In this document: positions 14,059 to 39,136 of the stretch, one piece after another | Position numbering within the stretch: position 1 is the stretch's first letter | Layout of the letters: every line of letters begins with the position of its first letter | NCBI GenBank assembly: GCA_041906785.1 | Contig: JAYRIM010000029.1 | Coordinates: 1,149 to 65,148, forward strand | Origin: Candidatus Levyibacteriota bacterium | GTDB taxonomy: Bacteria > Patescibacteriota > Microgenomatia > Levybacterales > UBA12049 | Length of the DNA: 64,000 nucleotides | Direction: 5' to 3' | Position numbers and translations under genes: made by a program | Notes under the pieces: model-generated | Told to the model about the DNA's origin: nothing | What the model saw: the letters and a program-made list of their open reading frames with translations, nothing else | Database searches by the model: none

Positions 14059-14065
14059 TTTCCAC

Positions 14066-15579: not shown

Positions 15580-17688
15580 CTATTTTGATGGTATTGTGAA
15601 GCAAAAAAGCGCACCTTGATCTTTCTCACTTTCTACCCATATTTTGCCTTTATGCCTTTTAATAATATCTGCTGATACATACAATCCTAATCCCAAGCCA
15701 GGGAATGTATCTTCTCTATTACCACTGACACGGAAAAACCGTTCGAAAATATGTTTTTGTAATTCTTTTGGTATGCCCACACCATAATCCCGCACACATA
15801 CTTTTGTTTCCTCGTCTGTCTGTATAACAGAAACATCGATTTTCTTTGCATCAGGAGAATATTTAATTGCGTTTGATAAGAGATTCATAAGAACCTGGCC
15901 GATTCGCTCTCTATCTCCAAACACTTTTCGTCTTGCATTTCCCTCAACTGAAATTCGATGTTTATCAGTCGTTCTCTGCATTTCTTCAATAGTTTCTTTC
16001 GTAAGGGAGTTGATATCAAATTGTTCAAATTTCATTGAAAGTCTTCCAGACTCAATTTTCGTTACATCAAGTAAATCCTTAATAAGATTAGTTAGCTTCG
16101 TAAGCTGTAGATCCATTTTCTTTAATTGTTCTGCTGTCTCTATATTCCCCTGTTTTTGAAACCTGCGGGTTAATACTTGTACATACGCTTTTAAGCTCGT
16201 TACTGGAGTTTTCAATTCATGACTCGCTATGCTGATGAAATCATCTTTCTGACGTTCAAGTTTTTTCCGTTCTGTAAGATTAATGACTAAACCGATTATT
16301 TGGCCTTTCTTTCCTTCTGTAAACGTTTTTCCGATTAGCACAGGAACTCTCGAACCATCTTTTCTAAGATATTCTTTCTCATACGGTGTATGAAAACCTT
16401 TTTTATGTAATTCTCGTAATTCCTCACGATATTGGTCGTGATATTCATGTGGAGTTATATTGGCAATAGTAATTTCCCGTTTGCGTAGGTCACGTTTCGT
16501 GAGTTTTACCATCTCTAAAAAAGCCTTATTCGCATTGGTAATAACACCATCTGCATCTGCAAAAAACACACCAATTATATTCGCATCGACTATACGTCTA
16601 AGTCGTGTTTCACTTTCCTGAAGTGCAACCTGAGAATTTGATAACTCCTCAGCAAGTTTTTCTGCTTTAACCCGAGCTACATACTGCCAGTGACTTAATC
16701 CGAACAATGCTAAGCTTGTAAAAATTCCTCCAGCTAAAAGAAACGGTACGAGACTTCTTTCAGTGGAATAAATAAAATAGCGTGTTTGAGCAAAATAAAG
16801 TGTCCAGGTCCTCCCAGCAATACTGAAATTGCGAACAACACTCTCCTTGGCAGGTGATTTATCAACATCTGCGTTAGTAAAAAGTAAAGCATTTCTATAT
16901 GGTTTCGTTCCATCGTAAATATACATGTCTGCATCTGATTGTGTATCATGACCGAAAATACTATAAAAAAAATCGTTGGCACGAAATGGTCCATAGACAT
17001 AGCCATATAATAATTCCTTTCTTTCAGTAATAGTACTCGGAGTTGTACCTCCAAAATATACAGGCATATAAATAAGAAACCCTGGCTGTTTATTAGTAGT
17101 TATTTCCTGCACAAGAGTAACGATACCCGAAATGGTTGGTTGACCAGTCTCCATGGCCTTTTGCATTGCGTCACGCCGTGTTCTTTCAGAATACATATCA
17201 AAACCTATAGCTTTCTTATTCCGATCATCAAATGGTTCTAAATACTTTATAACATGATAGACATCTCGCTCATCATCAGGATAAATAGTAAAATTTTCAT
17301 ACCCTTCTTCCTCCATCAACTCAATAAACTCTTGTTTTTTATCGCTAGAAAAACGCTCTGAGAAACCTATTCCTTGAATGCCGTTATACCGGCTACGAAG
17401 CTCTAAATGTGAAGCGAAACTATGAAACTCATTACGAGTAATATATTGTTGTGACGAGAACATTCCAGCCCCAGCTCGTAACATAGCAATATATGTATCT
17501 AACCGTTTATCAATCGCCTCAATTCTTCTTGTTACTATCCTATCGAAGTACAGTTTATCTTTACTGTCAGCAACACGATCGATATAGAATGCTGCTAAAA
17601 ATGTTGTTAATAAACCCAATATAAAAATCGATAGAGGAAATAATGGACGTGAACGGTAATGATGTGTATGAAACCTACGTAATCTCAT
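15580..17688 (-). CDS. Sensor histidine kinase (TM, large extracytoplasmic sensor, PAS, HisKA, HATPase_c)
   Basis: 702 aa. H-box SHELKTPVTSL, N-box NLLSNAIKYS, G1 DYGVGIP and G2 GLGLGL are all present. A PAS segment (IVDANIIGVFFADADGVITNANKAFLEM) is seen. The N-terminal TM helix is followed by a ~300-aa periplasmic region that may be CHASE-like. Confidence 0.85.
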   Translation of the reverse strand: MRLRRFHTHHYRSRPLFPLSIFILGLLTTFLAAFYIDRVADSKDKLYFDRIVTRRIEAIDKRLDTYIAMLRAGAGMFSSQQYITRNEFHSFASHLELRSRYNGIQGIGFSERFSSDKKQEFIELMEEEGYENFTIYPDDERDVYHVIKYLEPFDDRNKKAIGFDMYSERTRRDAMQKAMETGQPTISGIVTLVQEITTNKQPGFLIYMPVYFGGTTPSTITERKELLYGYVYGPFRANDFFYSIFGHDTQSDADMYIYDGTKPYRNALLFTNADVDKSPAKESVVRNFSIAGRTWTLYFAQTRYFIYSTERSLVPFLLAGGIFTSLALFGLSHWQYVARVKAEKLAEELSNSQVALQESETRLRRIVDANIIGVFFADADGVITNANKAFLEMVKLTKRDLRKREITIANITPHEYHDQYREELRELHKKGFHTPYEKEYLRKDGSRVPVLIGKTFTEGKKGQIIGLVINLTERKKLERQKDDFISIASHELKTPVTSLKAYVQVLTRRFQKQGNIETAEQLKKMDLQLTKLTNLIKDLLDVTKIESGRLSMKFEQFDINSLTKETIEEMQRTTDKHRISVEGNARRKVFGDRERIGQVLMNLLSNAIKYSPDAKKIDVSVIQTDEETKVCVRDYGVGIPKELQKHIFERFFRVSGNREDTFPGLGLGLYVSADIIKRHKGKIWVESEKDQGALFCFTIPSK

Positions 17689-19828: not shown

Positions 19829-19862
19829 CTGACTACCGACAACTGATAACTGACAACTGTAA
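19829..19862. repeat. Heptamer-periodic tract (TGACTAC CGACAAC TGATAAC TGACAAC)
   Basis: 7-nt periodic NGAYAAC units lie immediately upstream of the secE start codon. Confidence 0.6.
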
Positions 19863-19865
19863 TGT

Positions 19866-20048
19866 ATGGTCACACCACTAAAATTCCTCATCGAAACTAA
19901 AGATGAATTACAAAAAGTAGTATGGCCATCACGACAAGACGTAATACGCTTAACATTTATCGTTATTTTTGTTAGCGCTTTAGTAGCATTTTATATAGGG
20001 GCGCTAGATTTCGCTTTTGCGAAAATCACAGAAACATTATTAAGATAA
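19866..20048 (+). CDS. secE: Preprotein translocase subunit SecE
   Basis: 60 aa with a single C-terminal TM helix (LTFIVIFVSALVAFYIGALDF). Its position immediately upstream of nusG is the conserved one. Confidence 0.75.
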   Translation: MVTPLKFLIETKDELQKVVWPSRQDVIRLTFIVIFVSALVAFYIGALDFAFAKITETLLR

Positions 20049-20096
20049 TCACAAGTCATAAGTCTACTTAGGACTTATAACTTGTAACTTACTATT
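20049..20096. repeat. Heptamer-periodic tract (AAGTCAT AAGTCTA ... CTTATAA CTTGTAA CTTACTA)
   Basis: Periodic 7-mers between the secE stop and the nusG start. Confidence 0.5.
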
Positions 20097-20675
20097 ATGG
20101 ATCAAACAGATCAATCAGAAAAACTTACACCAACTACCAATGATGCATCTGCAAATGCAAAGTGGTATATCGTTCATACCTACGCAGGTCATGAAAATAA
20201 GGTATCGAAAAATCTCCAACAACGGGTACAAGCACTCGGCTTTGAAAATCGGGTGTTTGATGTTATTGTACCAACACGAAATACCATTAAAGTCTCTCAA
20301 GGAAAAAAGGAAAATGTACAGGAAAAAATCTTCCCAGGGTATGTGCTCGTAAAAATGATTCTCGATGACGAAAGTTGGCTTCTTGTACGAAGCACGCAAG
20401 GCGTCACAGCATTTATCGGCGCTGGAAATAAACCCACTCCTATTTCAGAAAAAGAAGTTGCGGCTATTCAACAGTTCATGCAGCAAGATCAGCCTCTTTA
20501 TAAAACCTCATTTACTATTGGTGAAGCAGTTAAAATTGTCGATGGTCCACTGACAGATTTCTTAGGAACAGTTGATACCATTGACGAATCGCATGGAAAG
20601 TTAAAAGTGCTTGTGACTTTATTTGGAAGAGAAACCGTGGTAGAATTAGATTTTCTTCAAGTGAAGAAAATCTAA
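20097..20675 (+). CDS. nusG: Transcription termination/antitermination factor NusG
   Basis: 192 aa. The NGN domain (WYIVHTYAGHENKV) and a C-terminal KOW (GEAVKIVDGPLTDFLGTV) are present. Confidence 0.9.
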   Translation: MDQTDQSEKLTPTTNDASANAKWYIVHTYAGHENKVSKNLQQRVQALGFENRVFDVIVPTRNTIKVSQGKKENVQEKIFPGYVLVKMILDDESWLLVRSTQGVTAFIGAGNKPTPISEKEVAAIQQFMQQDQPLYKTSFTIGEAVKIVDGPLTDFLGTVDTIDESHGKLKVLVTLFGRETVVELDFLQVKKI

Positions 20676-20793
20676 TTAGTTAAAAGTTCAAAGTCAAAAG
20701 TGTAAAGTAAATAAGGAAACTACAAATGATTCCTTATATTACTTTTAATTTTTCATTTTTAACTTTTAATTTGACTGACTGAAAGGAAGGAAC

Positions 20794-21216
20794 ATGGCGA
20801 AGAAAGTAAAAACAATTATTAAATTAAACATTCCAGCCGGAGCAGCGACTCCTGCACCACCTGTCGGTCCAGCGCTTGGTCAACATGGATTACCGATCAT
20901 GGAATTTGTGAAAGCGTATAATGATAAAACGGCTGATCAAAAAGGTAATATTCTTCCAGTGGTTATTACAGTGTATGAAGATAGAACATTTAGTTTTATC
21001 ACGAAAAAACCACCAGTCGCTGAAATGATTAAAAAAGCATTAAGTAAAGATAAAGGCTCACAAAAACCAGGACGTGAATCTGCAGGAGTACTCTCACGAA
21101 CACAAGCTGAAGAAATCGCCAAACAAAAAATGGAAGATTTAAATACATCAGATCTCGAAATGGCTACTCGTGTCGTAATGGGCACAGCCAGATCGATGGG
21201 CGTAGAAGTTAAATAA
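20794..21216 (+). CDS. rplK: 50S ribosomal protein L11
   Basis: 140 aa. [32 protein letters not shown] is the canonical L11 N-terminus. Confidence 0.95.
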
Positions 21217-21290
21217 AAAAATGAAAGATTAAATCTCAAAGATTTTTTTAGATTTGATTTTTTATTTTTTAGATTGACTGGAAGAAACAT

Positions 21291-22130
21291 ATGGGAAAAA
21301 TAAGAGTAAAAGTCATCGGCGACGAACAAGCCGAGAAAGAACAACAAGCAGAAGCAAAAAAACGCGCAGAAGCGAAAAAGATTGAAGCATATAAACGCGA
21401 AAATCTTGAAAAGCAGACTGGTGATAAAACTGTAGAAACAATTGAAAAACCAGAAGAGATAAAAGAAGCAAAACCTAAAACTGTAAAGAAAAAGTTTGAA
21501 AAGGATGTAACGAAGAAGCGCTCAAATAAATTTGATGAGGTAGCTAAACTTGTTGATAAAAATAAAACATATTCTCTTCAAGAAGCTGTTTCACTTTTAC
21601 CAAAACTTCAAAGAGCAAAATTTGATGAAACAGTGGAGCTTCATATCAATACGACAGATAAAGGAGTTTCCGGAAACGTGACACTTCCTCACGGCACAGG
21701 AAAGACAGTTCGGATTGTGATCGCAAACCAATCTGAAGATCCGAAAGGCGTTGAAGAATTAGTAAAAAAAGTTGAGAGTGGAACAATTGACTTTGATGTA
21801 CTTCTCGCAACACCTGAAACAATGCCTAAATTAGCGAGAATTGCTCGATTTCTAGGACCACGCGGACTTATGCCAAATCCGAAAAACGGTACAGTAACTC
21901 CAAAACCGCAAGAAATGGCGAAAAAGTTTGAGGGTGGACAAATGAATTTTAAAGCAGAAGCGAAATTTCCACTGTTACACTTATCAGTAGGAAAAGTATC
22001 GTTTGGAGATAAAAAATTAGGAGAAAATGTAAAAGCTGCGATAGAAGCTGTACAGTTACAGAATATAAAAAGCGTAACACTTAAATCGACGATGTCTCCT
22101 GGAATGAAACTCGATGTCAGCAACCTCTGA
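21291..22130 (+). CDS. rplA: 50S ribosomal protein L1 with a ~75-aa Lys/Glu-rich N-terminal extension
   Basis: 279 aa. The L1 core begins around KFDEVAKLVDKNKTYSLQEAVSLL, and the preceding K/E-rich segment is an extension. Confidence 0.9.
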   Translation: MGKIRVKVIGDEQAEKEQQAEAKKRAEAKKIEAYKRENLEKQTGDKTVETIEKPEEIKEAKPKTVKKKFEKDVTKKRSNKFDEVAKLVDKNKTYSLQEAVSLLPKLQRAKFDETVELHINTTDKGVSGNVTLPHGTGKTVRIVIANQSEDPKGVEELVKKVESGTIDFDVLLATPETMPKLARIARFLGPRGLMPNPKNGTVTPKPQEMAKKFEGGQMNFKAEAKFPLLHLSVGKVSFGDKKLGENVKAAIEAVQLQNIKSVTLKSTMSPGMKLDVSNL

Positions 22131-22133
22131 TAG

Positions 22134-22170
22134 AAGTTACAAGTTACAAGTTATAAGTTATAAGTAATGA
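22134..22170. repeat. Heptamer tandem repeat, (AAGTTAY)x4-5
   Basis: aagttacaagttacaagttataagttataagtaatga, directly after the rplA stop codon. Confidence 0.8.
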
Positions 22171-22190
22171 GTCGAAATCAACTCCTAATT

Positions 22191-22245
22191 CACGACACTT
22201 CACAGAAGTTAGTCCCCTTGTGGGATCACTCGTAACTCATAACTT
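22191..22245 (+). repeat. Conserved 45-nt motif, family D, copy 2
   Basis: cacgacacttcacagaagttagtccccttgtgggatcactcgtaactcataact. Confidence 0.6.
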
Positions 22246-22285
22246 TCTCTTGCATTCCCCTTCTTTAGCCTACTATACTACTCTT

Positions 22286-24859
22286 ATGGACCCTATTTCC
22301 GAAAAACCTTCATTTTCACTACGAAATTGGCTTACAACACCAAATGGAAAAAAAGTTCTTGTACTATTTGGTGTTAGTTTAAGTGTTTTTTTAGTTTCAT
22401 TTTTAACCTTTAATCCCGTAAAAAATAAACCCACTCAAAATCAAATTTCTAGAAAGAATAACTCGACAGAGAAAACGCTTGTCTACCCTGCTCCATCCCT
22501 CGAATTCGGAGCATATACACTACAAGGTATATTTCCTTCTGTTCCCGAAACTGTTTCTTCTTATACAGTTAAAACGAACTTGAGCCAGGAAGAAATGAAA
22601 GCTCTTGCTCAATTATTCGGATTAACAGAAGAGAAAAAATTAACAGAGCCTTTCGTTCTTTTTTACAATACAACCGATCCAGAATTCCGAGGCATGTTGT
22701 ATATAAATCAGCAAACAGGTGCCTTCTCTTTCCAATCATACGGATCTCATAAACCGAAAGATGTATCAGATTCTTCGCCAGCTGTAATCGCAAAAACATA
22801 TGTACAGCAATTAGGATTTGATGATGGTACATTTACAGAGCCTGTTACATATAAAGAAAAAACATTTCCAAACATAACATATGTAGAGTTTCATCGAGAT
22901 TGGCAGAAGGTTGAGTTACCAATTCTCAGTACAATTGGGCTTTTAAATCTTCCTGAAGGGAAACCACTGAATACACTGACATTAGGAGAACTTGAACCAT
23001 TTACGATTAAAAACCCAGATATCATACAAACATCAAATAATCAGGATGGTACAAGCCGTCCGAATGACTTTAATACTGTTACAGTAGCAGTCAGTAAGGA
23101 CGGGACAATATTATCGATTGAATCGAACATTCGAAAAATTATTGGAACAACAAGAGTCACTCGAGATGATCTTTTAACACCAGAAGAAGCATTACAGCAG
23201 TTTACAAATCATACTGGTGATTTTTCACTCACGATCCCCGCAGGAACAGGTTCTATCGCTTGGGATAAAGTGTATCCAGAGAATATCGCAAAAGCGAAAA
23301 GTGCAATCATCACAGATTATATCCTCACGTATTTAGAAAATCCTCCTAGTATTGCCCAGAATAATATCGTTCCAATGTATACCATCCGAGGAATCGCTAC
23401 GTTAGACTCAGGTTATACAGTTCGTTTTATTCAAACGCTACCAGCATTAAAGGATGGAAGTTCAATATTTGCTAAAGAAGCTACTTCAAAATCACTGGCA
23501 AAAACTCAATCAACTGTTCTTGCCGCAAAAGACAGTTTACAACTTCAGCCATATTATCCATCAGGAACAATTATTCCTACACCTACTCAAGTAGCTGGAG
23601 GTGAAATAGAATTTCCGGCCCCAACCCCGACAATCAATCCTTATTTCGCAAAATGTCCGGACTGGACAAATGGCACAACATCGAAAATACAAGTTCCAGG
23701 TCTTGGTGAAATGGTTGTAGCCATAAGCCAATCATTTTACAATCCAGATAAAAAAGAGCTGGATCGCCATGGCCCGCACACTTTTTTCTTTCGTTCTGCC
23801 ACATTTCCCGTAAGTGATATTGAAGATGTAAAAAATAAATTCTTCTTTGGAGCCGATGACCTCAGTAAACCCCCTGGCCCATTTGAGAAGCAACTAATGA
23901 TAAACGTTGCAAAAAGAACGATGGGAGATATCACTGCATCTACTGTTGATGAGATGTATGCATTGTTTAAAAGTCTCAATCGACCTTTTACAAATAGCCC
24001 ATGCGACACTTCCTCACAGTTTGAGCGTCACGCACCTCCAGACCTACGCAATTGCAAGTATAACCCTACTACCTATGAAGGTGCTGGCTTAGATATTCCT
24101 AGACTCCAAAAACTTGGTGATAATGTTGCAAAAAGATTACTGCAAGTCCAGCAAAATGGGACAATGCAATCCCTAGTTTCAGAACCAGACGTTTTTCCTA
24201 AAGAAACAATCTTTGCATTTGGTTATATTTTCTCTAGTGCAACTCCAAATATGTACTACGGTGATACAAAAGAGAGGTTTAAAGCCTGTTACATTACAGG
24301 TACATCGCCAGTTCTCTATTTATATCCTGAAAAAGATAAAAACGTGTCTGTACAAATTGATGCACCGCTGACGTACACTGATCCTTCCATCATGAATAAT
24401 GAGTGGTCAGTAATAGCTCACACAGATGGTTCAGTTAATGCAACTGCAAATTATACTCGCCCATTCTTATATTATGAATATGATCGTACGAAGATACAGA
24501 TTTCAGAACCTTTAGAAGGATTTGTTGTTACGAAAGACAGTTGGAAAAATGAAGTTCAGAAGATAGCTAAATCACTTCAATTGACAAACGCTGAAACAAA
24601 CTCGTTAATAACAGAAGTCCATAATGTAGTAACAAATCTATCAAATACAGTACAATATGTTAAACTTTCACTGGTTGAACAAAATGAAATTACTAAGAAA
24701 CTTCCATTAACGATCTCTCCTAAACCTGACAACATATATCGAATACATATTGCTGTTACACCATTTGATACGTTTAGAACAGTAAACGAGCAAAACATTC
24801 AACCGGTTGTACGAAAAGGATTTACCGTTGTAGAACTTGGCGCATTTGACGTAAAGTAA
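22286..24859 (+). CDS. Large hypothetical membrane-anchored or extracytoplasmic protein (~858 aa)
   Basis: The ORF opens at a GTG at 22220 that lies inside the conserved motif D. The first ATG is at 22286 (MDPISEKP...), followed by a TM helix (VLVLFGVSLSVFLVSFLTF). No family was recognised. Confidence 0.6.
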   Translation: MDPISEKPSFSLRNWLTTPNGKKVLVLFGVSLSVFLVSFLTFNPVKNKPTQNQISRKNNSTEKTLVYPAPSLEFGAYTLQGIFPSVPETVSSYTVKTNLSQEEMKALAQLFGLTEEKKLTEPFVLFYNTTDPEFRGMLYINQQTGAFSFQSYGSHKPKDVSDSSPAVIAKTYVQQLGFDDGTFTEPVTYKEKTFPNITYVEFHRDWQKVELPILSTIGLLNLPEGKPLNTLTLGELEPFTIKNPDIIQTSNNQDGTSRPNDFNTVTVAVSKDGTILSIESNIRKIIGTTRVTRDDLLTPEEALQQFTNHTGDFSLTIPAGTGSIAWDKVYPENIAKAKSAIITDYILTYLENPPSIAQNNIVPMYTIRGIATLDSGYTVRFIQTLPALKDGSSIFAKEATSKSLAKTQSTVLAAKDSLQLQPYYPSGTIIPTPTQVAGGEIEFPAPTPTINPYFAKCPDWTNGTTSKIQVPGLGEMVVAISQSFYNPDKKELDRHGPHTFFFRSATFPVSDIEDVKNKFFFGADDLSKPPGPFEKQLMINVAKRTMGDITASTVDEMYALFKSLNRPFTNSPCDTSSQFERHAPPDLRNCKYNPTTYEGAGLDIPRLQKLGDNVAKRLLQVQQNGTMQSLVSEPDVFPKETIFAFGYIFSSATPNMYYGDTKERFKACYITGTSPVLYLYPEKDKNVSVQIDAPLTYTDPSIMNNEWSVIAHTDGSVNATANYTRPFLYYEYDRTKIQISEPLEGFVVTKDSWKNEVQKIAKSLQLTNAETNSLITEVHNVVTNLSNTVQYVKLSLVEQNEITKKLPLTISPKPDNIYRIHIAVTPFDTFRTVNEQNIQPVVRKGFTVVELGAFDVK

Positions 24860-24905
24860 AAGTTTTAAATTTTTAATTATATTTTTGACTTTTGATTTTT
24901 TACTT

Positions 24906-26075
24906 TTAATCTTCTATCACATATCCCTGATTTTTCTTTGTAGCAATAGTATCTTCGGGTAAACCTAATTTCATTAATTTTTGTCGAACTCTTCTGACAA
25001 GCTGATCAATTGCCCAGTCTGAATATTTCTCTTGTGACTCTTCTTTCCAGACAGCTTGTGCAATCTCATCCCGGGTTACAATTTTTCCTTTATTTTGTAA
25101 AAAGTGTCGTAACATTCTTCTTTCAGATGGTGAAAAAGTCGACGTTACTATAGTATTGTTTATTACAATATCTTTTTTATTTGTAACATTTATCGTTGTG
25201 GCATCTGCATAGTATGTTTTTACATAATCCCTGAGAAGCGCAACACGAATAGTAAAAGAGTCTCCATGAGGTACAAGAAAACCTGTATTCACAAGATATG
25301 TTATAGTTTGTTTTTCTTCTGGAGTAAAATGCATCTCTTCTCTTACAAGTTTTCTCAACACATCATGCTCCCATTCCTCTAATTCTGTCATTATTGTATT
25401 CAATCGTAAAATCATACCATCATGCGTAAATAATGTGGAACGATCGTTAGTCTTCGCTAAATGTCTTAGAGCTTCACGTACTAACCATAAACGATCACCG
25501 CATTGGGTAATGATAAGTTCCTGTAAAGCCTTATCAAGAGAAAAGTTATATTCTTTAGCAAGTTCTTGAATAAATGATCGAACTTCTTCAGTCGTATATG
25601 GCCTTTTAATAAAAATATTATGATACAGAGAAGAAAAATGAGATAATTTTTTAACATATGAAGGTGCTGTTATATTCTTCTTAAAAAAATAAATTATTGA
25701 ACATTGTTCCTGCGATAATGCAAATGTGTTAAAAATTGGCAATAGATCAAACCGTTCTGTTAAAAGCAAATCCGCATTCATAAGAATGATAACTAAATTT
25801 TTCTTACCTCGTTGACCAGCAAATTCATTCAGAAGAGAAATAACTTGTTCTTTCGTATCATGGAGATGAACATGTAAATCGAGAGATGTAATAAAAGGAA
25901 GTGTTTTATCAGCATAACGAAGCGGATTTGTTTGGAGGGAATCAACTATTTGGGGAACTCTGTATGCTTGACCTCGTGAAGAATAATTAACAGCAGACGC
26001 TGACTCTCCTCTATTTACCACATCTATAAAAGCATTTGCGCAGTCTGTTAACCAGTTTAAAAATACTGAGATCAT
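24906..26075 (-). CDS. Transcriptional regulator with a C-terminal OmpR/PhoB-type winged-helix domain and an uncharacterised ~280-aa N-terminal domain
   Basis: 389 aa. The C-terminus (ERRMLRHFLQNKGKIVTRDEIAQAVW...AIDQLVRRVRQKL...GYVIED) matches the trans_reg_C pattern. There is no receiver domain. Confidence 0.55.
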   Translation of the reverse strand: MISVFLNWLTDCANAFIDVVNRGESASAVNYSSRGQAYRVPQIVDSLQTNPLRYADKTLPFITSLDLHVHLHDTKEQVISLLNEFAGQRGKKNLVIILMNADLLLTERFDLLPIFNTFALSQEQCSIIYFFKKNITAPSYVKKLSHFSSLYHNIFIKRPYTTEEVRSFIQELAKEYNFSLDKALQELIITQCGDRLWLVREALRHLAKTNDRSTLFTHDGMILRLNTIMTELEEWEHDVLRKLVREEMHFTPEEKQTITYLVNTGFLVPHGDSFTIRVALLRDYVKTYYADATTINVTNKKDIVINNTIVTSTFSPSERRMLRHFLQNKGKIVTRDEIAQAVWKEESQEKYSDWAIDQLVRRVRQKLMKLGLPEDTIATKKNQGYVIED

Positions 26076-26222
26076 ACTCTAGGACGCCATTATATCACAT
26101 CTATTGTCAAACTGACAATTTATTGTCAGAAATTGTTATAGCATCCATGACAAGTTGATAATTAAGACTCATATATATACTCAAGCTCCTACTTCGCAAG
26201 TTTTTTATCATGAGAAATAAAT

Positions 26223-27626
26223 ATGTCACGCGAAGGAGATTATTATCTTGTAAACTTAGCAAACCAGGCAGGAAGAAAAGAAATTGTCCCTTATGTAGAC
26301 CAGGTAATTCGTAATTTCACACAATTAGGAACAGTCGTAAGCCCCACTGGCCGTTCAGTACCGAAGGATATACTGGGAACTGACGAATCTGACGATATAT
26401 TTGATAGGCCGACGATAACTCCTGCAGGTATCAGACAGATTTTTTCAGAGTATATTATAGATCTGGATCATGATGATACCCCTGGAAAAGTGGCTGATGT
26501 CGTAAATTTCATGTTATTTGATGAGAGAAATCCTGAACATGAAAATCCATTTAATCCTCAAGCTGCAGAACTTCATGATGTCTTTGTGGCAACGCATGAT
26601 CCTTTATCGCAAGAAATAGCGAGAGAACTTTGGGAATATGAACAGAGAGAAGCCTTAAGAAGACAGTTAGAGTTCCGAGTTAAAAGAAATATCGATATTA
26701 GAATCATAGGTCAACTTGCATCTGGAAAAACTACATTTCTTCATACAGTTTCGCGAGAGTTAGCATTAGAAGAGGCAAACCTTGGAGTTTCTGCCAGTGA
26801 ACCTGAAGACCTAGAAAACGACTACCCAGAGCTTGCAGTACAAAACAGCTATGAATACGCAAGAGATTTATCACGAGGAGCAGAGGCAACATTCGGAACA
26901 GAAACAGTACAGCTCTTTAGCTATGCCACACATAATGGAGACCTTGCAGAAGTTACGATTCATAGTTCAGGTGGACATGTCCGAGCTGATAGACCATATG
27001 ATTATATAGATTTTTCTGTAGCAGCTTTTTTTATTGATTACCACTTAATGGAACAACTCACTCAGTTAGATACAGCGACTGATCCTCAAACAGTTTTGGA
27101 AAATAATGAAACGGTTTTAGAAACTGTACGCAGTTTACTGGCACGATTACAAGATTGGCATCAAGTAGATGGTGCGAAACTTGGTGTACTTACAAAATTA
27201 CCTCATGGTCAACCTATTACTAAAAAAATGTTTGAGGTAGTCAATAGAGCATATAAAAGAGTTCTCGCATATGCAGAAGCACATTACGAAGAGATAACAG
27301 ATGACTTTATTTACTCTGAAGGTATGGAACTAGATCCGACCATGCTTGATCCACAGGACGTCAGAAAAACTGCCAGCGAGTGGTGGCCTATCTACGATGA
27401 TGAACCGACATTTTCAGGCACTGTTCAGGTAGCAAAACGACTAACAGAACTTGCAGTGCTAGGCGAAAAGAAAAAAGTTTTAGGAGAAACACAACTGGTA
27501 ACATTTGATCCCACCAATAATAATCCCGGATTGATCTACTACGAACAGCTACCAAATAATAACGACTCTACAACAAAAAGGAATGATACGTATGACCAAG
27601 GCACTATTTTTAATGCAAACATGTAA
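26223..27626 (+). CDS. Uncharacterised P-loop NTPase
   Basis: 467 aa. Walker A IIGQLASGKTTFLHTV is present, and a Walker-B-like VAAFFIDYH may be. No family was assigned. Confidence 0.5.
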   Translation: MSREGDYYLVNLANQAGRKEIVPYVDQVIRNFTQLGTVVSPTGRSVPKDILGTDESDDIFDRPTITPAGIRQIFSEYIIDLDHDDTPGKVADVVNFMLFDERNPEHENPFNPQAAELHDVFVATHDPLSQEIARELWEYEQREALRRQLEFRVKRNIDIRIIGQLASGKTTFLHTVSRELALEEANLGVSASEPEDLENDYPELAVQNSYEYARDLSRGAEATFGTETVQLFSYATHNGDLAEVTIHSSGGHVRADRPYDYIDFSVAAFFIDYHLMEQLTQLDTATDPQTVLENNETVLETVRSLLARLQDWHQVDGAKLGVLTKLPHGQPITKKMFEVVNRAYKRVLAYAEAHYEEITDDFIYSEGMELDPTMLDPQDVRKTASEWWPIYDDEPTFSGTVQVAKRLTELAVLGEKKKVLGETQLVTFDPTNNNPGLIYYEQLPNNNDSTTKRNDTYDQGTIFNANM

Positions 27627-27995
27627 CAAAATTTTATGAATGTCATTCTGACAAAGTTTTGTCATATCTTTTCTCAAGCATCACTGACGGAAATGGATTA
27701 TTTTGGTAGTATGCACAGCGCTGTATATCATTCTAATAATACATATTTTTTATGAATGTTGCGACATCTGAACTCTCTGTATTACCATTGCGTTAATATG
27801 ATGTATTCAACCTTTGTAGCAGGAAAAAATATTGTGTCGGAGAGCTCTACAAGCTCGTATTGTAAGTTTCTAACATACTCTCTGATATCTCTCACCCTCC
27901 TCTCGTTTCTTTTAGAATATATAAAGTTCTAAAGCTTCAAAACCAATCTGTACAATGTACGTAATTTACCTTATGATAAAAAAGGAACCAATAGT

Positions 27996-29549
27996 ATGAC
28001 TACCCGAAAATTTCTTAAAGTATTCTGTTTGCTTTTCTTAATCGCATTACAATTGACAAACCCTTCGGGTTCATACGCTCAGTCTTCAAGCAAGTTAGAA
28101 TCATGTTTCCAATATTATAATTACGGAAAAGTTAAAGCTGAATTAGTTACTGAACGGAATGACTATAATTCAGGAGAGTCAGCACGCATTCTAGGAACAG
28201 TTACAAACGAAAATAGTTTTCCTCTTCGAGATGTTGTGCTGTACGCACAATTAAAACGAATTAATAATGAGCTCTCATTTAATGAAAACGGACATTATCT
28301 TATTGATCGCTTTACTGTAAAACAAGAACTCAATTTCCTTCCCCATGAAGTTAAAAATATAGACGTTTCTTTTCCAATAAACGCCTCATATCCAAATGGC
28401 GAATACGAAGTTCATTATTTTATTTATTCTCCTTTAGGTTTCCATTATGGAGGAAGACCATTTCTTGAGGAGGATGTCGCTGGAATATCTTCCTTCACTA
28501 TAACAAACGGAAAAAATCCTGATGTATTCTTTGATGTAGGAAATGTACAGGTTAATAGCGTATCACAAAAACTTCGCGGCGCAACGCAAGAATTTACTCA
28601 AGATTCTCTTTCCTTCTCCATCCCCGTGATTGATACTCGCCCGTATAAATCTGCGGTCCAAGTGTCTGTCCGCTGGTATCAATTTGAAGACACGTTTGAA
28701 CAAAATATTCTTAAAACAGAAGAAGCAGTTTACCAGCCGCCTGATCAGACAATCCAACTTACATTTTCTCCTCCAGTTCCTGGTGCATATGTACTAGTTC
28801 TTGAGATAGATGAACCTGTCCGGTCCATGTTTAAATATCGTTTTGCGAAAATAGGGGCTGGCTCATCAATATTACGAATGAATGACTTAGGTATTACAGC
28901 ATATCCCCCGACTACTGATGATCGAGCATTTGTCTGTTTCCATGCACCGTCATCTGTGTCTACTATAGAAACTACTGTCAAACTTGCTATCTTAGATGAT
29001 AAAAAAAATCCAGTTTCATCTATTGAAGAATCCCAATCATTTCCACCAAATGTTTTAGCGCTCAGCCTACCATTATCGAAATTAAAAAATAAAAACGATT
29101 TTTGGATTCAAACCACATTTATACCGAAAGATACGAATATCAAACAGCAAAAAGCTGAAATACATTATACTTGCGATATATTTTCCGATAGTGTCACAGC
29201 TCTAAAATTACAATATAATGCAACAGAAAAAAAGCAGTTGACTGTTCAGTCAATAGATCTTTGTGGTAAATCCTCAACTGGCTATGTGGAAGAAATAAAA
29301 ATTTTTAAAGATAATAAAACTGTTCTAGAAAAATATAATGTTACAGATGGTATAGTTACTGTAGCATCTTTAAAACCTGGAACATATAAAGCATCTGCCA
29401 AGAATGGTAAGCTAGCCGCATCACTAACATTTACCATAGCTGAAGGGAATAGTTTTGTTATGCTTATTGTTACTCTTGGCTTAGCATTTATGTTTTTCGT
29501 AGGAGTTGCATTTATATATCGTTTGCGAAAAAGTAAACCAATAGTATGA
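27996..29549 (+). CDS. Hypothetical cell-surface protein (signal peptide plus C-terminal TM anchor)
   Basis: 517 aa. N-terminal signal peptide (FCLLFLIALQLTNPSGSYAQ) and C-terminal TM anchor (VMLIVTLGLAFMFFVGVAFIYRLRKSK). Confidence 0.55.
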   Translation: MTTRKFLKVFCLLFLIALQLTNPSGSYAQSSSKLESCFQYYNYGKVKAELVTERNDYNSGESARILGTVTNENSFPLRDVVLYAQLKRINNELSFNENGHYLIDRFTVKQELNFLPHEVKNIDVSFPINASYPNGEYEVHYFIYSPLGFHYGGRPFLEEDVAGISSFTITNGKNPDVFFDVGNVQVNSVSQKLRGATQEFTQDSLSFSIPVIDTRPYKSAVQVSVRWYQFEDTFEQNILKTEEAVYQPPDQTIQLTFSPPVPGAYVLVLEIDEPVRSMFKYRFAKIGAGSSILRMNDLGITAYPPTTDDRAFVCFHAPSSVSTIETTVKLAILDDKKNPVSSIEESQSFPPNVLALSLPLSKLKNKNDFWIQTTFIPKDTNIKQQKAEIHYTCDIFSDSVTALKLQYNATEKKQLTVQSIDLCGKSSTGYVEEIKIFKDNKTVLEKYNVTDGIVTVASLKPGTYKASAKNGKLAASLTFTIAEGNSFVMLIVTLGLAFMFFVGVAFIYRLRKSKPIV

Positions 29550-30865
29550 AAAAAATATTTTTTGTTGTTTTTTTATTATGTGTCGGAATATTTTCTTTAC
29601 AAGCAGTATCTCAGGTCGATGCAGATTATACTAGTATGCGAATTCCCCCGATTGGAGATAATCCAGATAACTATCGTACTGACTGTTATGGCCTAACAAC
29701 ATCGGAAAATCTCTCAGTACAAGTAAAGAAAAATCAGGTGGATCTCGCATCAACATCATCAAATGCATGTACCTTTACAATGGACGTGCGAGCTCGTGGT
29801 GAATGGGAATCAGTAGGAGCCCATGAAGATTCTCCGCCTTTTGGTTGGCGTGGACAGCCAGTATGGAATCCTATTACTTTCCGATCAGATTATGGAGTAG
29901 TCGCTGGAGGATTTAGTGGATTTAGTGTTACCTGCACTGACCCAGGCTATTCACTTCCTAATGCATTACCTAGCTATGTGGAACTAGTTAAAGAGGAAGA
30001 CCTTTTTGCTACTGACCCTGCTGTAGCATCTGGAAAACGGTATTATTTCCGCCTAAAGTCAGACGCGCCACAAACAGGTACATTTAATATTCTTGCTCAA
30101 GCATCGTACTCATGCCAACTTGACGCAGATATTGGTTCGATCTGGGGCAGAGTTATAATGCAAACGATTCAACCTGGCAGAAACTATTATTCCTATTGTG
30201 CAGGTGCTGAAGTCATAGATAAGAGCTCTCATCAAACATCTTTTAATTATCGCATAAGCCTTGAAAACGGCTGTCTCGCCTCTCCTCCGCCACCTAGCCC
30301 AACAGTCACTCCCCAACCTCCTGCCTCTTCATCATGTGAACCGATTACACTCAGTGGAGAGTTAAAAACCGGAGGGACAATCACACTAACAGCAACAAAG
30401 CGCGGGTCAGAATCACCCGGCGCAGGAACCTTTCATGTCACTAAGGACGCAAATGAACTAACTACTTCCCCATTAATTGGACCGACTGTCACAACAGCTC
30501 TCGACCCTTCAACGAATCAAAATGTAAATGTTTACACAACAAGATGGCCATATACACTTACAAACTCTGGAACATATACGATTTCGCTTGAATATTCTCC
30601 TGCTGTCCAGCAAATAGAAAACACTAACCATCCGTTTACGTTTTCTTCATTTTTCAAATTTATGACAAACAGTTGGAAATCATTAGGAAAAAAAGAAACA
30701 AATTTACAAAAAACGACAATAGCAAAAAAAGAACCTAAGCCGAATGTTCTGAGCGCGACATCACAACGCTCTATACAGCTCTATCAATTCCAACTTACTC
30801 CTACGCCAGCCTCAGCGATAATAAGTAGAACATGTGCTGAAATTAAGTTCACAGTTGCCCAGTAA
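29546..30865 (+). CDS. Hypothetical secreted protein
   Basis: 439 aa with an N-terminal signal peptide (IFFVVFLLCVGIFSLQAVSQ). The start codon overlaps the preceding stop (ATGA), suggesting translational coupling. Confidence 0.55.
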   Translation: MKKIFFVVFLLCVGIFSLQAVSQVDADYTSMRIPPIGDNPDNYRTDCYGLTTSENLSVQVKKNQVDLASTSSNACTFTMDVRARGEWESVGAHEDSPPFGWRGQPVWNPITFRSDYGVVAGGFSGFSVTCTDPGYSLPNALPSYVELVKEEDLFATDPAVASGKRYYFRLKSDAPQTGTFNILAQASYSCQLDADIGSIWGRVIMQTIQPGRNYYSYCAGAEVIDKSSHQTSFNYRISLENGCLASPPPPSPTVTPQPPASSSCEPITLSGELKTGGTITLTATKRGSESPGAGTFHVTKDANELTTSPLIGPTVTTALDPSTNQNVNVYTTRWPYTLTNSGTYTISLEYSPAVQQIENTNHPFTFSSFFKFMTNSWKSLGKKETNLQKTTIAKKEPKPNVLSATSQRSIQLYQFQLTPTPASAIISRTCAEIKFTVAQ

Positions 30866-30877
30866 TTCTGCGAAACG

Positions 30878-30906
30878 TTGACAATACCCCTACCTCATGG
30901 TATTAT
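30878..30906 (+). promoter_or_regulatory. Sigma70-like promoter of rplJ-rplL
   Basis: TTGACA (30878-30883), a 17-nt spacer, then TATTAT (30901-30906). Confidence 0.55.
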
Positions 30907-31055
30907 GTACGAACCTAAGACAGTAGGCAAAACAATAAGACCTACCGAGGAGCGGACTGAGCAAAGCAAAGGAGCTCGCCTGCGCACGAAGTGCAGACAG
31001 GCGCGGAATTTCTTTACAATTATTAATCCGCATCACTCACGGACATCTTAGGTAG
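30907..31055 (+). promoter_or_regulatory. rplJ 5' leader, a candidate L10(L12)4 autoregulatory leader
   Basis: ~150-nt GC-enriched untranslated leader with potential stems (gcctgcgcacgaagtgcagacaggc). In many bacteria the L10 leader is an autogenous control element. Confidence 0.35.
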
Positions 31056-31613
31056 ATGTCCTTTTTTATGGATACAGCAACTAAAATTTCAGCAAACAAA
31101 AATAAAAAAGCTGCAATCATCAGCGAAGTAACCGCAAAGGTTAAAAAAGCAAAAGGATTCGTATTTACGAATTATCAAGGGCTAACCCATCATCAGCTTG
31201 AAGATCTTAAGCGAGGAATGAAAAAACTCGACGCTGAATATGTTGCTACTAAAAATACGTTACTCAAACGAGCCCTCCAAGAAGGAACTGATAGCTCACA
31301 ACTCATAACTGATAACTTTGATGGTCCTACAGCAACAGTATTTATGTATAAGGATGCAGTCGAACCGATTAAAGAATTGACGAAGTCAATAAAAGCATTA
31401 CAACTCCCGGTCATCAAATTCGGCATTATTGAAGGTAAAAGAGTTGATGCAGCCCAAATTGAAAGATTGGCTACCCTCCCGCCGCTGAATGTTCTCCGTG
31501 CACAACTTGTTGGTAACTTACAATCACCTATTGCAGGATTTCATAGAGCATTGCATTGGAATTTACAGAAACTTGTTTTAACATTGAGTGCAATTCAACA
31601 AAAGAAACAATAA
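31056..31613 (+). CDS. rplJ: 50S ribosomal protein L10
   Basis: 185 aa. KGFVFTNYQGLTHHQLEDLKRGMKK is L10-like, and the gene sits immediately upstream of rplL. Confidence 0.9.
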   Translation: MSFFMDTATKISANKNKKAAIISEVTAKVKKAKGFVFTNYQGLTHHQLEDLKRGMKKLDAEYVATKNTLLKRALQEGTDSSQLITDNFDGPTATVFMYKDAVEPIKELTKSIKALQLPVIKFGIIEGKRVDAAQIERLATLPPLNVLRAQLVGNLQSPIAGFHRALHWNLQKLVLTLSAIQQKKQ

Positions 31614-31616
31614 TTT

Positions 31617-31672
31617 GTCATTCTGAGCTTTAGCGAAGAATCTTAAAGATCCTTCGTTTCACTCAGGATGAC
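31617..31672. repeat. Palindromic intergenic element, family A, copy 3, between rplJ and rplL
   Basis: gtcattctgagctttagcgaagaatcttaaagatccttcgtttcactcaggatgac. Confidence 0.7.
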
Positions 31673-31700
31673 ATTACAAAAGAAAGGCGGTGAATGAAAC

Positions 31701-32099
31701 ATGGCAAAAATGACAAAAGAAGAATTAATGAGCGCGATTGAAGAGATGTCAGTTTTAGAACTTGCTGATCTCGTCAAAGCACTTGAAGAAAAATTTGGAG
31801 TTTCCGCAGCAGCTACTATGGTGGCAGCAGCGCCAGCAGCCGCTGGAGCAGCACCAGCAGCAGATGCAGCACCAGCTGAAGAGCAAACAATTTTTAACGT
31901 TGTTCTCGCAAATTCAGGTGCTAACAAAATTGCAGTTATTAAAGCTCTTCGCGAACTCGTTCCAACACTTGGATTGAAAGAAGCGAAAGATTTAGTAGAC
32001 ACAGCACCAAAAGAAGTTATGACGCAAGTCAATAAAAAAACTGCTGATGAAGCAAAAACGAAATTAACAGCAGCGGGTGCAACTGTAGAATTGAAATAA
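31701..32099 (+). CDS. rplL: 50S ribosomal protein L7/L12
   Basis: 132 aa. The N-terminal dimerisation helix, an Ala-rich hinge ([18 protein letters not shown]) and the C-terminal KEAKDLVD...GATVELK are all present. Confidence 0.95.
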
Positions 32100-32100
32100 C

Positions 32101-32177
32101 AAAAAACGCTAAACTAATAATCCCGATCTATATCGGGGTGCCCAACACTTAACACTAGTTTAGCGTTTTTTTGTGGT
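32101..32177 (+). terminator. Rho-independent terminator after rplL
   Basis: Long stem AAAAACGCTAAACTA ... TAGTTTAGCGTTTTTTT enclosing an inner hairpin (cccgatctatatcggg). Confidence 0.7.
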
Positions 32178-33024: not shown

Positions 33025-33252
33025 ATGACTGATCCCACCCTAAATAATAAAAAACAACTTTCTATTGAAAAACTACCTGATCTTCTTACAGTACGTGAAG
33101 TTGCAGAAATTCTTCGAGTTTCACCTTTAACAATAAAACGTTGGGGTAAACGCGGAAAACTTCCAGCGATTCGTATTAATTCCCGGGGCGACAGACGCTA
33201 TAAAAAAGAAGCAGTGTTATGGTTACTTGGTATTCAACAAAAGACGGAGTAA
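33025..33252 (+). CDS. Excisionase/MerR-like helix-turn-helix DNA-binding protein
   Basis: 75 aa. LLTVREVAEILRVSPLTIKRWGKRGKLPAIRI matches the excisionase-family HTH pattern. Confidence 0.6.
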   Translation: MTDPTLNNKKQLSIEKLPDLLTVREVAEILRVSPLTIKRWGKRGKLPAIRINSRGDRRYKKEAVLWLLGIQQKTE

Positions 33253-37591: not shown

Positions 37592-39136
37592 CTATTGTCC
37601 ATTTTCCCGCTTATTTTCTCGAGCAGCATTCATTGAGTTTTTTACGAAATCCTCAGCCCAGGTATATATATTCCGTTCTTCCATGAGTTCTACCATTTCG
37701 TTTGTCCGCCTGACTTTCTCACGCACACCCATTTCTAACCCTGTTTTAATACTGTCAGCAACCTGTTCAATATCATATGGGTTTACTATAAGTGCAGCGC
37801 CTAAATCGATAGCTGACCCAGCGAATTGTGAGAGAACAAGCATGCCTGGATCTTCTGAAAATGATTGTGCGATGACAAATTCTTTTGATACTAAATTCAT
37901 TCCATCATCAAGTGGTGTAACTACAGCTAATCTCGCTTTCTTATAGAGATTTAATACTTCTTCGCGAGTGAATGACTGATGAATAACCTGAATAGGCCGC
38001 CATGTCTCTGTCGCATATTTGTCATTTATTTGTTTTACTAATGCGTTTACATCTTCTTTTAATTGTTTATATGTAGGAATTTCGCTTCGAGATGGAGACA
38101 TAACACCTAAATACACAGCTCGCTCACGATACTGCGGATATTTTTCGAAAAACCGATCAATTGCAGACAGTCGTAAAGGTACTCCCTTCGTATAATCGAG
38201 CCTATCTACACCGAGAATCACTTTATAGTTTTGAAAGAAAAAATCCAATGGATCAGAAATCTTTTCTTTCTGTTCTTCATTCTGCTCACCTCGTAGCATA
38301 TCTTGAAGAACTCGAAGTAAGAAAGAATCTTCAAGAGGTGGCGCCACGATTCTTTTGATAACATCTACATCAATGCCAAGCGGTAAATTCCGGACTGTTG
38401 TTATCTTTTTATCAAAATGTACCTGCCGTTTCTCTTCATCAATACGCACTGCCAATTCACGTTGGACTGTATTTAGGAAATTTTTCGCTTGATAATCACG
38501 ATGGAATCCCAGAAAATCACACGATAAAAGGCTCCATAAAATATCTTTTTTTACTGGAAGGATTCGGAAAATCTCCCACGTCGGCCATGGAATATGCCAG
38601 AAAAATGCGACTATCGTATCTTTCGGTCTTCCTAAATACATCGGAACGAGTGAAAGCTGATAATCATGGATCCAAATAAATGTTTTTCCTGAAATTTCTT
38701 CTTTTATCGCCTGAGCGAATTTTTTATTAACTTCTTTATATCCTTCATACCATTCCTTACGGAATTGAGGTTTCTGGAATGCTATATGACAAAGAGGCCA
38801 GAGTGTCTGATTCGCGAAACCATTATAATATGCATGAATTTCTTCCTGAGAAAGGAAAATGCGCTTCATTGTATAATCGCCTTCGGTTCCTTTAATAGTG
38901 AGCTTCCCCTTCCTATCAACACCGATTTTATCTTCTTCTGTTCGCGCGCGTGCAATATATGTAGCTTTTGAGGCTTGAGCAAGGATATCAAAAGAGGAAG
39001 AAACACCCCCGGGGACGTTTTGCAAAACTATCTGATCGTTCTTGCGGATATTCATTTTCGTCTCGCCATCCGCAGCAATAATCGTCTTATAACCAAGACG
39101 ATCGAAATAATCACGCAAATCGTAAAAAGATGCCAT
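37592..39136 (-). CDS. otsA: Alpha,alpha-trehalose-phosphate synthase (GT20)
   Basis: 514 aa. IWIHDYQLSLVPMYL and FWHIPWPTWEIFRILP are hallmark OtsA motifs. Confidence 0.85.
   Translation of the reverse strand: MASFYDLRDYFDRLGYKTIIAADGETKMNIRKNDQIVLQNVPGGVSSSFDILAQASKATYIARARTEEDKIGVDRKGKLTIKGTEGDYTMKRIFLSQEEIHAYYNGFANQTLWPLCHIAFQKPQFRKEWYEGYKEVNKKFAQAIKEEISGKTFIWIHDYQLSLVPMYLGRPKDTIVAFFWHIPWPTWEIFRILPVKKDILWSLLSCDFLGFHRDYQAKNFLNTVQRELAVRIDEEKRQVHFDKKITTVRNLPLGIDVDVIKRIVAPPLEDSFLLRVLQDMLRGEQNEEQKEKISDPLDFFFQNYKVILGVDRLDYTKGVPLRLSAIDRFFEKYPQYRERAVYLGVMSPSRSEIPTYKQLKEDVNALVKQINDKYATETWRPIQVIHQSFTREEVLNLYKKARLAVVTPLDDGMNLVSKEFVIAQSFSEDPGMLVLSQFAGSAIDLGAALIVNPYDIEQVADSIKTGLEMGVREKVRRTNEMVELMEERNIYTWAEDFVKNSMNAARENKRENGQ

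Follow-up and report, generated by a model that had tools for sequence, protein, structure and literature searches.

Between rplA and rplJ of a Candidatus Levyibacteriota bacterium (GenBank assembly GCA_041906785.1, contig JAYRIM010000029.1) lies a block of five non-ribosomal genes, here called g1 to g5, which we analysed within a 64-kb stretch of that contig (the window). We read this block as the current content of an old, variable cargo slot at the boundary of rplKA and rplJL in a Levybacteria-like clade of Patescibacteria (Microgenomates), and give this reading a probability of about 0.72; our confidence in any specific function of the cargo is much lower. In its best reading the slot is an old hotspot of recombination and turnover, enriched in exported envelope proteins and carbohydrate enzymes.

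The initial annotation had placed six accessory genes between the two ribosomal-protein (r-protein) units. The separation by non-ribosomal accessory genes is borne out: secE-nusG-rplK-rplA (19866-22130) and rplJ-rplL (31056-32099) stand 8,925 nt apart (22131-31055). The number of genes is five rather than six, both by six-frame open reading frames (ORFs) and in an independent gene call on the contig L081; the 369-nt spacer between g3 and g4 (27627-27995) yielded no ORF longer than 58 aa. L081, a Logan assembly contig from SRR26835457, aligns to positions 21251-32130 of the window with 0 mismatches in 10,880 nt, and since this independent contig is identical across both junctions, an assembly chimera at either of them is excluded. 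In the ORF table rplL is not followed by rpoBC, the next entry being a 241-aa ORF on the minus strand.

Cargo between rplA and rplJ differs among relatives

Relatives were gathered by searching proteins with L1 and looking up the contigs of the matches, and by a single scan each of GTDB and of metagenomes. Cargo of 1.1-8.9 kb lies between rplA and rplJ in 12 of the 13 relatives that carry both genes, in about ten configurations (Table 1). The flanks on both sides are collinear, with the order PAP2-GalU-secE-nusG-rplK-rplA on the left and rplJ-rplL followed by a gene for a 75-aa helix-turn-helix (HTH) protein on the right, and they are well conserved (NusG 72-93%, L11 74-91%, L12 74-89% identity). 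An all-against-all BLAST of the cargo found three families common within a sub-clade (g1 with g2, the VWA proteins and the family 4 glycosyltransferases, GT4); the rest are unique. The same genes are thus not fixed across the lineage. Candidatus Levybacteria RIFCSPHIGHO2_01_FULL_38_26 is the nearest named genome among the matches listed (L1 54%, NusG 77%, L11 81%), and cargo-protein homologues come with the labels Patescibacteria or Shapirobacteria.

Table 1. Content of the rplA-rplJ interval in the window and in relatives, with identity to the L1 protein of the window
Locus	L1 identity	Gap	Content
Window	100%	8.9 kb	g1 to g5
L082	75%	6.1 kb	g1 and g2 orthologs, then 333-aa and 201-aa proteins
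L085	68%	1.8 kb	VWA protein
JGI 3300050046 contig	66%	2.1 kb	VWA protein
L084	66%	1.1 kb	264-aa protein related to VWA proteins
L106	65%	6.0 kb	VWA protein; 1339-aa GH5 cellulase
L107	64%	2.1 kb	GH63/trehalase-like protein; 128-aa protein
L108 (complete 1.61-Mb chromosome)	62%	5.1 kb	176-aa protein; beta-helix protein; polysaccharide lyase
L001	55%	~2.1 kb	S-adenosylmethionine (SAM) methyltransferase; 286-aa protein
L002 (Levybacteria)	54%	2.2 kb	GT4; 236-aa anchored protein
L092	52%	2.2 kb	23S-IVP-like protein; GT4
L098/L100	49%	5.1 kb	GH115_C protein; GT4; 333-aa protein
L090	50%	306 bp	none; only contiguous relative

The closest relative, L082, shows how the block is layered. Its g1 and g2 orthologs, with g2 in the same place and on the same strand, are 57% and 65% identical to those of the window, compared with 75% for the flanking L1 and L10, which fits vertical descent of fast-evolving genes. 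The divergent control region between g2 and g3 aligns with that of L082 over its full length, and on the right side homology resumes at the -35 hexamer of rplJ. Because the control region aligns in full, the difference between the two genomes spans the interval from the g3 start codon, or a later point, to that hexamer. Presence and absence therefore do not follow the block as one unit: L082 shares g1, g2 and the control region, it lacks g4 and g5, and g3 is doubtful. No clear counterpart of g3, g4 or g5 was found in any fetched relative. The proposed accessory-gene insertion holds as to the genes, which are accessory and variable among relatives, but not as to a discrete insertion event.

The locus had also been described as normally invariant. 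We compared 78 non-Patescibacteria loci from a GTDB scan with L1, of which 72 were informative, a biased sample consisting of the best L1 matches among those listed. In 53 of these 72 controls rplJ lies at most 700 bp from rplA, three carry inserts of 1.2-5.5 kb, and in 16 neither rplJ nor rplL was found within 6.7-10 kb (one of these was inspected by eye, and N-masking was absent). With about a quarter of the controls non-contiguous and 12 of 13 relatives split, these data show that the arrangement is conserved but not invariant.

rplJL carries its own conserved control region

The promoter that the initial annotation assigned to rplJ is real. This sigma-70 promoter, TTGACA-17-TATTAT (30878-30906), scores 11/12, has a TG-extended -10 and is the top plus-strand match in 14 kb, in a scan where promoter-like sites overall were no commoner than in shuffled sequence. 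Directly 3' of the -10 hexamer, in the 5' untranslated region (UTR) of rplJ, is the L10-leader box (CCTAAGACAGTAGG-N-CCTACCGAGGAG, or CCUAAGACAGUAGG...CCUACCGAGGAG in the leader RNA). This is the setting of the Rfam L10 leader (RF00557), namely the rplJ 5' UTR with an AAGACAG...CCGAGG box that mimics the 23S rRNA site. The full-length RF00557 model matches positions 30896-31076 (33 bits, E 0.0012 in a 501-nt scan), which, unlike a canonical L10 leader, is under the 44-bit gathering threshold; no family reached its gathering score in an Rfam scan of the whole window. The match takes in the box and a terminator-like hairpin with a U6 run at 31041-31067. In an alignment of rplJ-upstream regions, the -35, the extended -10 and the box are kept in 10 of 12 relatives, whatever lies upstream.

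The hairpin bears on the start of rplJ. The ATG chosen by the ORF caller, at 31056, sits within the 3' arm of the hairpin, and the equivalent hairpin of the relative L089 contains no ATG, its rplJ start coming after the U-run. For these reasons the ATG at 31068, just past the U-run and the conserved rplJ start in relatives, is the more likely start.

In known systems rplJL is autoregulated by the L10(L12)4 complex through the L10 leader (PMC3616713). The rplKA and rplJL genes are separate transcription units, each with its own autoregulation. As in the rplKA and rplJL-rpoBC arrangement of Escherichia coli and Bacillus subtilis, rplJ has its own promoter and an L10-binding box, with rplKA upstream in the same orientation, and the terminator-like hairpin just 5' of the start codon recalls attenuation leaders of the Firmicute type. 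Unlike in those two species, the spacer measures 8.9 kb and holds five genes instead of a few hundred bases, and rpoBC does not come after rplL.

The HTH protein encoded just 3' of rplL (75 aa, HTH_17/MerR-type, 33025-33252, plus strand) is 84-95% identical clade-wide, more strongly conserved than L1 or L10, and looks like an essential small DNA-binding protein tied to the rplJL unit.

Table 2. Features of the secE-rplL region, in window coordinates
Feature	Position	Strand	Description or support
secE	19866-20048	+	Pfam SecE 8e-16
nusG	20097-20675	+	Pfam NusG 2e-29
rplK (L11)	20794-21216	+	Pfam L11_N and L11
rplA (L1, 279 aa)	21291-22130	+	Pfam L1 1e-34
rplA-g1 spacer	22131-22285	+	heptamer tract, 50-nt motif, weak promoter
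g1 (857 aa)	22286-24859	+	predicted single-pass membrane protein
g2 (389 aa)	24906-26075	-	predicted winged-helix regulator
g2/g3 divergent control region	26076-26222		promoter scan; alignment with L082
g3 (467 aa)	26223-27626	+	predicted cytoplasmic; Walker-A motif
g4 (517 aa)	27996-29549	+	predicted exported protein
g5 (439 aa)	29546-30865	+	predicted secreted protein
rplJL control region	30878-31067	+	promoter, L10-leader-like RNA, terminator-like hairpin
rplJ (L10)	31056-31613, start more likely ATG 31068	+	Pfam L10 1e-21
rplL (L7/L12)	31701-32099	+	L081 gene table; 74-89% identity to relatives' rplL (tblastn)

Predicted functions of the cargo

The cargo appears mostly to serve the cell envelope, as judged from folds and motifs. 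An N-terminal hydrophobic export or anchor segment is found in about 12 of 27 cargo proteins from 11 genomes, several of which also have a C-terminal anchor. Within the block, the membrane-anchored g1 and the winged-helix g2 are as the initial annotation had them, but of the three further secreted or surface proteins that it listed only two, g4 and g5, are found. Three of the families, those of g1, g3 and g4, are uncharacterised.

The g1 protein has a transmembrane (TM) segment at about residues 20-42, a large ectodomain and a separable C-terminal module. It matches no Pfam family (YycH, YycI and PepSY included) and no NCBIfam family, and only 15 homologues were found among 5.8e9 proteins. An AlphaFold2 (AF2) model with a mean predicted local distance difference test (pLDDT) score of 73.9 shows an N-terminal TM helix and the ectodomain; Foldseek matched it to 5coz (3e-6) and YycI (4e-5), and domains of the model can be superposed on YycI, YycH and YpeB-C as well as on 5coz, a related structure. 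Together, the anchor and the modelled fold suggest an ectodomain built of PepSY/YycH/YycI-like alpha/beta domains. Such an architecture, with one N-terminal TM helix and superposable extracytoplasmic domains, would resemble that of YycH/YycI, YpeB and the propeptides of M4 proteases. Unlike YycH and YycI, g1 is 3-4 times longer, has extra central and C-terminal modules and shares no detectable sequence similarity with them; there is also no WalK-like kinase near it, and the adjacent regulator g2 lacks a receiver domain.

Homologues of g1 occur in varied contexts, non-ribosomal ones among them: a paralog lies elsewhere in the L082 genome, and a tandem pair lies between rpsG and fusA in L087 (GCA_023488505.1, JAMDEA010000090.1). 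There, at 7406-15100, the str cluster is also interrupted, in the order rpoB-rpoC-rpsL-rpsG, insert, fusA, and the insert consists of five genes, two of them the tandem g1 paralogs (837 and 852 aa). The same kind of cargo thus occupies a second boundary in an r-protein cluster. The C-terminal module of g1 (residues 669-853, positions 24290-24859) has one match in a contig of a human-gut phage that lacks annotation (MT835506.1; 29% identity, E 2e-11) and another in the C-terminus of a 1039-aa protein of L087, by which the module looks separable and widely shared.

Residues 314-386 of g2 match Trans_reg_C (PF00486) at 3e-15, with 56.5 bits against a cut-off of 26.2, whereas no Response_reg match was found in Pfam or NCBIfam. 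The N-terminal approximately 300 aa have a faint similarity to the AAA+-like delta subunit of DNA polymerase III (NCBIfam holA, 9e-5, residues 112-207), and matches in the PDB are to winged helix-turn-helix (wHTH) effector domains only. On these matches g2 is predicted to be an orphan OmpR/PhoB-type wHTH DNA-binding regulator and, as it lacks a receiver domain, not a response regulator. Its promoter, TTGTCA-18-TATAAT (26118-26089, minus strand; scan score 11/12), is overlapped at the -35 by the palindrome CTGACAAT-TT-ATTGTCAG (26112-26129). In L082 the palindrome reads CTGACG-AATAGA-CGTCAG: the outer half-sites, CTGAC/GTCAG, are unchanged, and the inner bases differ in a compensatory manner. 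The palindrome is a candidate operator or hairpin, through which g2 is probably autoregulated.

The description of g3 as a P-loop NTPase agrees with a Walker-A motif (GQLASGKTT, residues 163-171), in which G163, G168, K169, T170 and T171 are invariant across the three known members of the family; the GGH and FxDY motifs are conserved as well. Beyond the motif, support is limited to two marginal, sub-threshold ABC-F matches around the Walker A (E of about 1e-3 and 8e-3). Only two homologues were found, one labelled Shapirobacteria, and the AF2 model has a pLDDT of 44. We therefore treat g3 as a candidate P-loop NTPase whose family is very rare.

Both termini of g4 are hydrophobic, with a signal-like segment at the N-terminus and a membrane anchor at the C-terminus. 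Its family has 714 representatives at E<=1e-3 in 1.84e9 proteins, of which about 25 are full-length at 34-44% identity. These relatives have at most sub-threshold Pfam matches (MG2, WxLIP_PGBD, PKD, PKD_4, SprB), with Flg_new_2 alone marginally at cut-off, and the weakly matched families are beta-sandwich and repeat domains. These data point to a large uncharacterised family of surface proteins. The g5 protein has a predicted signal peptide (N-terminal hydrophobic segment, KD 2.58) and a Pro/Ser/Thr-rich linker; it matched nothing in Pfam, NCBIfam, PADLOC or PHROGs, and none of the fetched loci contains a homologue. The g4 stop and the g5 start overlap (ATGA), which makes co-translation of the two genes probable.

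Origin of the block and alternative explanations

We propose that the strong promoter of rplJL and its L10(L12)4-responsive leader or attenuator would insulate these genes from upstream DNA. Since rplJL would be self-regulated, DNA between the rplA stop and the rplJ -35 would be tolerated with r-protein stoichiometry undisturbed. The content of the slot would turn over on the time-scale of genera, each sub-clade having vertical residents (g1 and g2 in the window and L082, a VWA protein, or a GT4 glycosyltransferase), while others, such as g3, g4 and g5, would be added or replaced. Exchange would proceed by double homologous recombination in the conserved flanks after DNA uptake, together with illegitimate recombination. 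As mobility genes are lacking, recombination in the flanks requires the fewest assumptions.

Had a mobile genomic island or a prophage remnant brought in all of the genes by one recent insertion, this might explain why 8.9 kb is the largest block seen at this site and why the fetched relatives lack a clear counterpart of g3, g4 or g5, and the phage-contig match of the g1 C-terminal 185 aa would sit well with it. In Pfam, NCBIfam, PHROGs and PADLOC, however, none of the five proteins belongs to an integrase, recombinase, transposase, defence or phage family; the sole PADLOC or PHROGs match of the cargo is that of g2 to a wHTH-domain PHROG. The window contains no tRNA, and the junctions (22080-22330 and 30780-31120) have no word of at least 8 nt in common on either strand. 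The block genes are native in composition (GC content 0.33-0.42; GC at third codon positions, GC3, 0.22-0.28; codon distance 0.13-0.18), falling within the distribution of the window (mean GC 0.38, GC3 0.28). Scans of IMG/VR with g3, g4, g5 and a g1 family profile returned no relatives, although single-protein scans reach close relatives only, and tblastn against GenBank phages gave nothing for g4 and, for g1, the C-terminal match alone. The repeated 50-nt motif at the left edge, which would speak for an island, has its second copy upstream of an unrelated TrmB-family gene and not at the right junction. Given also that g1, g2 and the g2/g3 control region are common to and collinear with L082, and that other genes fill the slot in 11 other genomes, such an insertion is very unlikely and for the block as a whole is largely refuted already.

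A dedicated envelope-signalling module of g1 and g2, with the rest of the block as its regulon and the proximity to rplJ incidental, is a more serious candidate, if still an unlikely one. WalK, the kinase of the OmpR-family WalR system, is modulated by YycH and YycI, which cross the membrane once (PMC7355866), and the YycH/YycI-like and PepSY-like folds predicted for g1 recall this arrangement. The two genes are adjacent and kept as a pair in L082, the conserved palindrome overlaps the g2 promoter, and a g1 homologue in L088 lies 1.6 kb from a two-component system. Yet g2 has no receiver domain and the block no kinase, the pairing is seen in two genomes only, and domains of the PepSY/YycH type are common to many extracytoplasmic proteins of diverse function, YpeB and protease propeptides among them. 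A functional tie of the cargo to the ribosome or translation, with g3 as a ribosome-associated NTPase and g2 as a regulator of r-protein genes, would account for the position of the block and could draw on the Walker A and marginal ABC-F similarity of g3, on its placement inside an r-protein cluster and on the g1 paralogs between rpsG and fusA in another Patescibacterium. The ABC-F similarity covers just 55-80 or so residues around the Walker A, at 17.9 bits against a cut-off of 380, while g1, g4 and g5 are predicted to be exported, the g1 family also occurs outside ribosomal contexts and the slot cargo of relatives (VWA, GT4, glycoside hydrolases, lyases, a methyltransferase) is unrelated to translation; we consider this explanation highly improbable.

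Several observations weigh against the cargo-slot reading itself. The sampling comprises 13 relatives at 49-75% L1 identity, none of the same species; the mechanism of turnover is one that we infer, and all five cargo functions are read from folds or motifs only. The g3 gene may be a diverged ortholog of the gene for the 333-aa protein at the same position in L082, with which it shares its upstream region (BLASTP 2e-4, yet an hhalign probability of 2.8%); if the two are orthologs, more of the block would have been inherited vertically. On the L089 contig, whose L10 is 63% identical, there is no rplA within 6.8 kb upstream of rplJ, so that some relatives may have the two units genuinely scattered, with no slot between them. 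Finally, the three other g1-family loci for which DNA was available (L086, L087 and L088) have no g2 homologue nearby, which weakens a functional pairing of g1 and g2 and with it the signalling module.

A bolder extension of the cargo-slot reading, which we regard as quite unlikely, is that in Patescibacteria boundaries within the universally conserved ribosomal and transcription gene clusters, such as rplA-rplJ here and rpsG-fusA in L087, are preferred and selectively maintained 'display sites' at which fast-evolving surface proteins and carbohydrate enzymes are swapped by recombination in the extremely conserved flanks, perhaps boosted by read-through from strong r-protein promoters. This would be a lineage-specific strategy of envelope diversification in episymbiotic bacteria with small genomes, and g1 and g2 would form an unrecognised envelope-sensing pair of a YycH/I-like sensor and a receiver-less OmpR regulator.

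Relation to known hotspots

Capsule and O-antigen loci of other bacteria behave as proposed here; the cps locus of pneumococci (dexB to aliA) and the O-antigen locus of E. coli (galF to gnd) are classic cases of transfer hotspots that lie between conserved core genes and lack mobile elements. Hotspots that are free of mobile genetic elements (MGEs) and diversify by recombination at flanking core genes have been documented (Oliveira, Touchon & Rocha 2017, PMC5635113). The rplA-rplJ slot resembles them in its fixed interval, its conserved core-gene bounds and a content that is highly different among relatives, as well as in the enrichment of surface and carbohydrate functions, the absence of a recognisable integrase or transposase and the native composition. 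It differs in that the flanks are two r-protein operons, and in that our comparison runs across genera or families (49-75% L1 identity) rather than across strains of one species. Unlike in hotspots of the cps and O-antigen type, the cargo consists mostly of unrelated singletons and not of one biosynthetic pathway. The slot would thus be a turnover hotspot of a known kind, flanked by core genes, in an unusual place, between two r-protein operons in Patescibacteria; a literature search found no paper on a split between rplA and rplJ in this group.

These findings have practical consequences. Synteny of rplKAJL should not be assumed in Patescibacteria, which matters for binning, completeness and phylogeny tools that use the r-protein block, and an interrupted rplKAJL cluster is evidence neither of misassembly nor of a mobile element. 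Anchored by universal markers, the slot is an easily found source of lineage-specific envelope and carbohydrate-active genes from uncultivated bacteria. Its genes are candidates for interaction with hosts or phages, and it could serve as a gauge of gene turnover in genomes of otherwise streamlined appearance.

The left junction and other features of the window

A 45-nt motif and a heptamer repeat tract had been noted at the left junction. Both are real, but neither marks the junction, as both are found elsewhere in the window. The tract (22134-22165) was confirmed by Tandem Repeats Finder (TRF), and in a scan of the whole window 17 of 19 period-7 arrays fell within the 14% of the window that is non-coding. 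Sites include 7755-7843, 14066-14104, 15230-15256, 15551-15581, 19829-19859, 20073-20091, 20678-20772, 21244-21271, 22134-22165, 24863-24910, 60036-60067, 61231-61263 and 61520-61545, with units such as AACTCAT, AACTGAY, TTTCCAA and AAGTTAY. The tracts often form inverted pairs, which would fold into long AT-rich hairpins in the intergenic DNA; one pair (20065-20090 and 22141-22166, 92% complementary) flanks nusG-rplK-rplA. They may be terminators, 5'-UTR elements or protein-binding arrays.

The motif, which extends over 50 nt (CACGACACTTCRCAGAAGTTAGTCCCCWTGTGGGA...; 22191-22240), is 88% identical to positions 10037-10086, and its 30-nt core occurs twice where 0.00 occurrences are expected by chance. 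It contains two small palindromes, and a weak third copy lies at 60472-60521. The two main copies are some 45-95 nt upstream of the starts of g1 and of the TrmB-family regulator gene; neither the right junction nor the orthologous rplA-g1 spacer of L082 contains the motif. As RNA, the spacer would fold into a long imperfect hairpin without a U-tail, modestly more stable than shuffles (z -2.7), and has no Rfam match even at E up to 10. We rejected a structured RNA as the identity of the motif, which on its own folds no better than shuffles (z -0.9 and -1.8), and also rejected an insertion scar made of motif and heptamers, the heptamers being intergenic genome-wide and the motif having no copy at the right junction. 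We treat it as a repeated intergenic or regulatory DNA element. A weak promoter, TTGCAT-18-TATACT (22250-22279), ends 6 nt before the g1 ATG. L082 retains it with a spacing of 7 nt to the ATG, but without the 50-nt motif. The retained arrangement suggests transcription of g1 from a promoter of its own, possibly into a leaderless mRNA. On the other side of the spacer, the L1 protein begins with a K/E-rich extension of about 75 aa.

Window GC is 33-45%, except for two stretches of higher GC, one at about 8-9 kb and the other at about 11-13 kb. Within these, the segments 7948-8355 and 11440-12591 have 56-59% GC in a window of 38% GC and deviant codon usage, and matched nothing in Pfam or Rfam. 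They lie in a 7.8-15.3 kb region bracketed by inverted repeats of 61-67 nt at 7753-7867 and 15204-15317, and could be foreign DNA or an unrecognised structured RNA.

To the right of the r-protein genes, positions 37592-47785 hold a sugar-storage cluster with a trehalose-6-phosphate synthase (GT20), a GT4 enzyme, two enzymes of the alpha-amylase family, of which one carries a fused amylo-1,6-glucosidase-like region, and a protein with a weak, sub-threshold trehalose-phosphatase match. Further on, 51511-58629 (minus strand) encodes a 2,372-aa protein rich in Kelch repeats and fibronectin-III domains, with internal repeats at multiples of about 141-150 nt.

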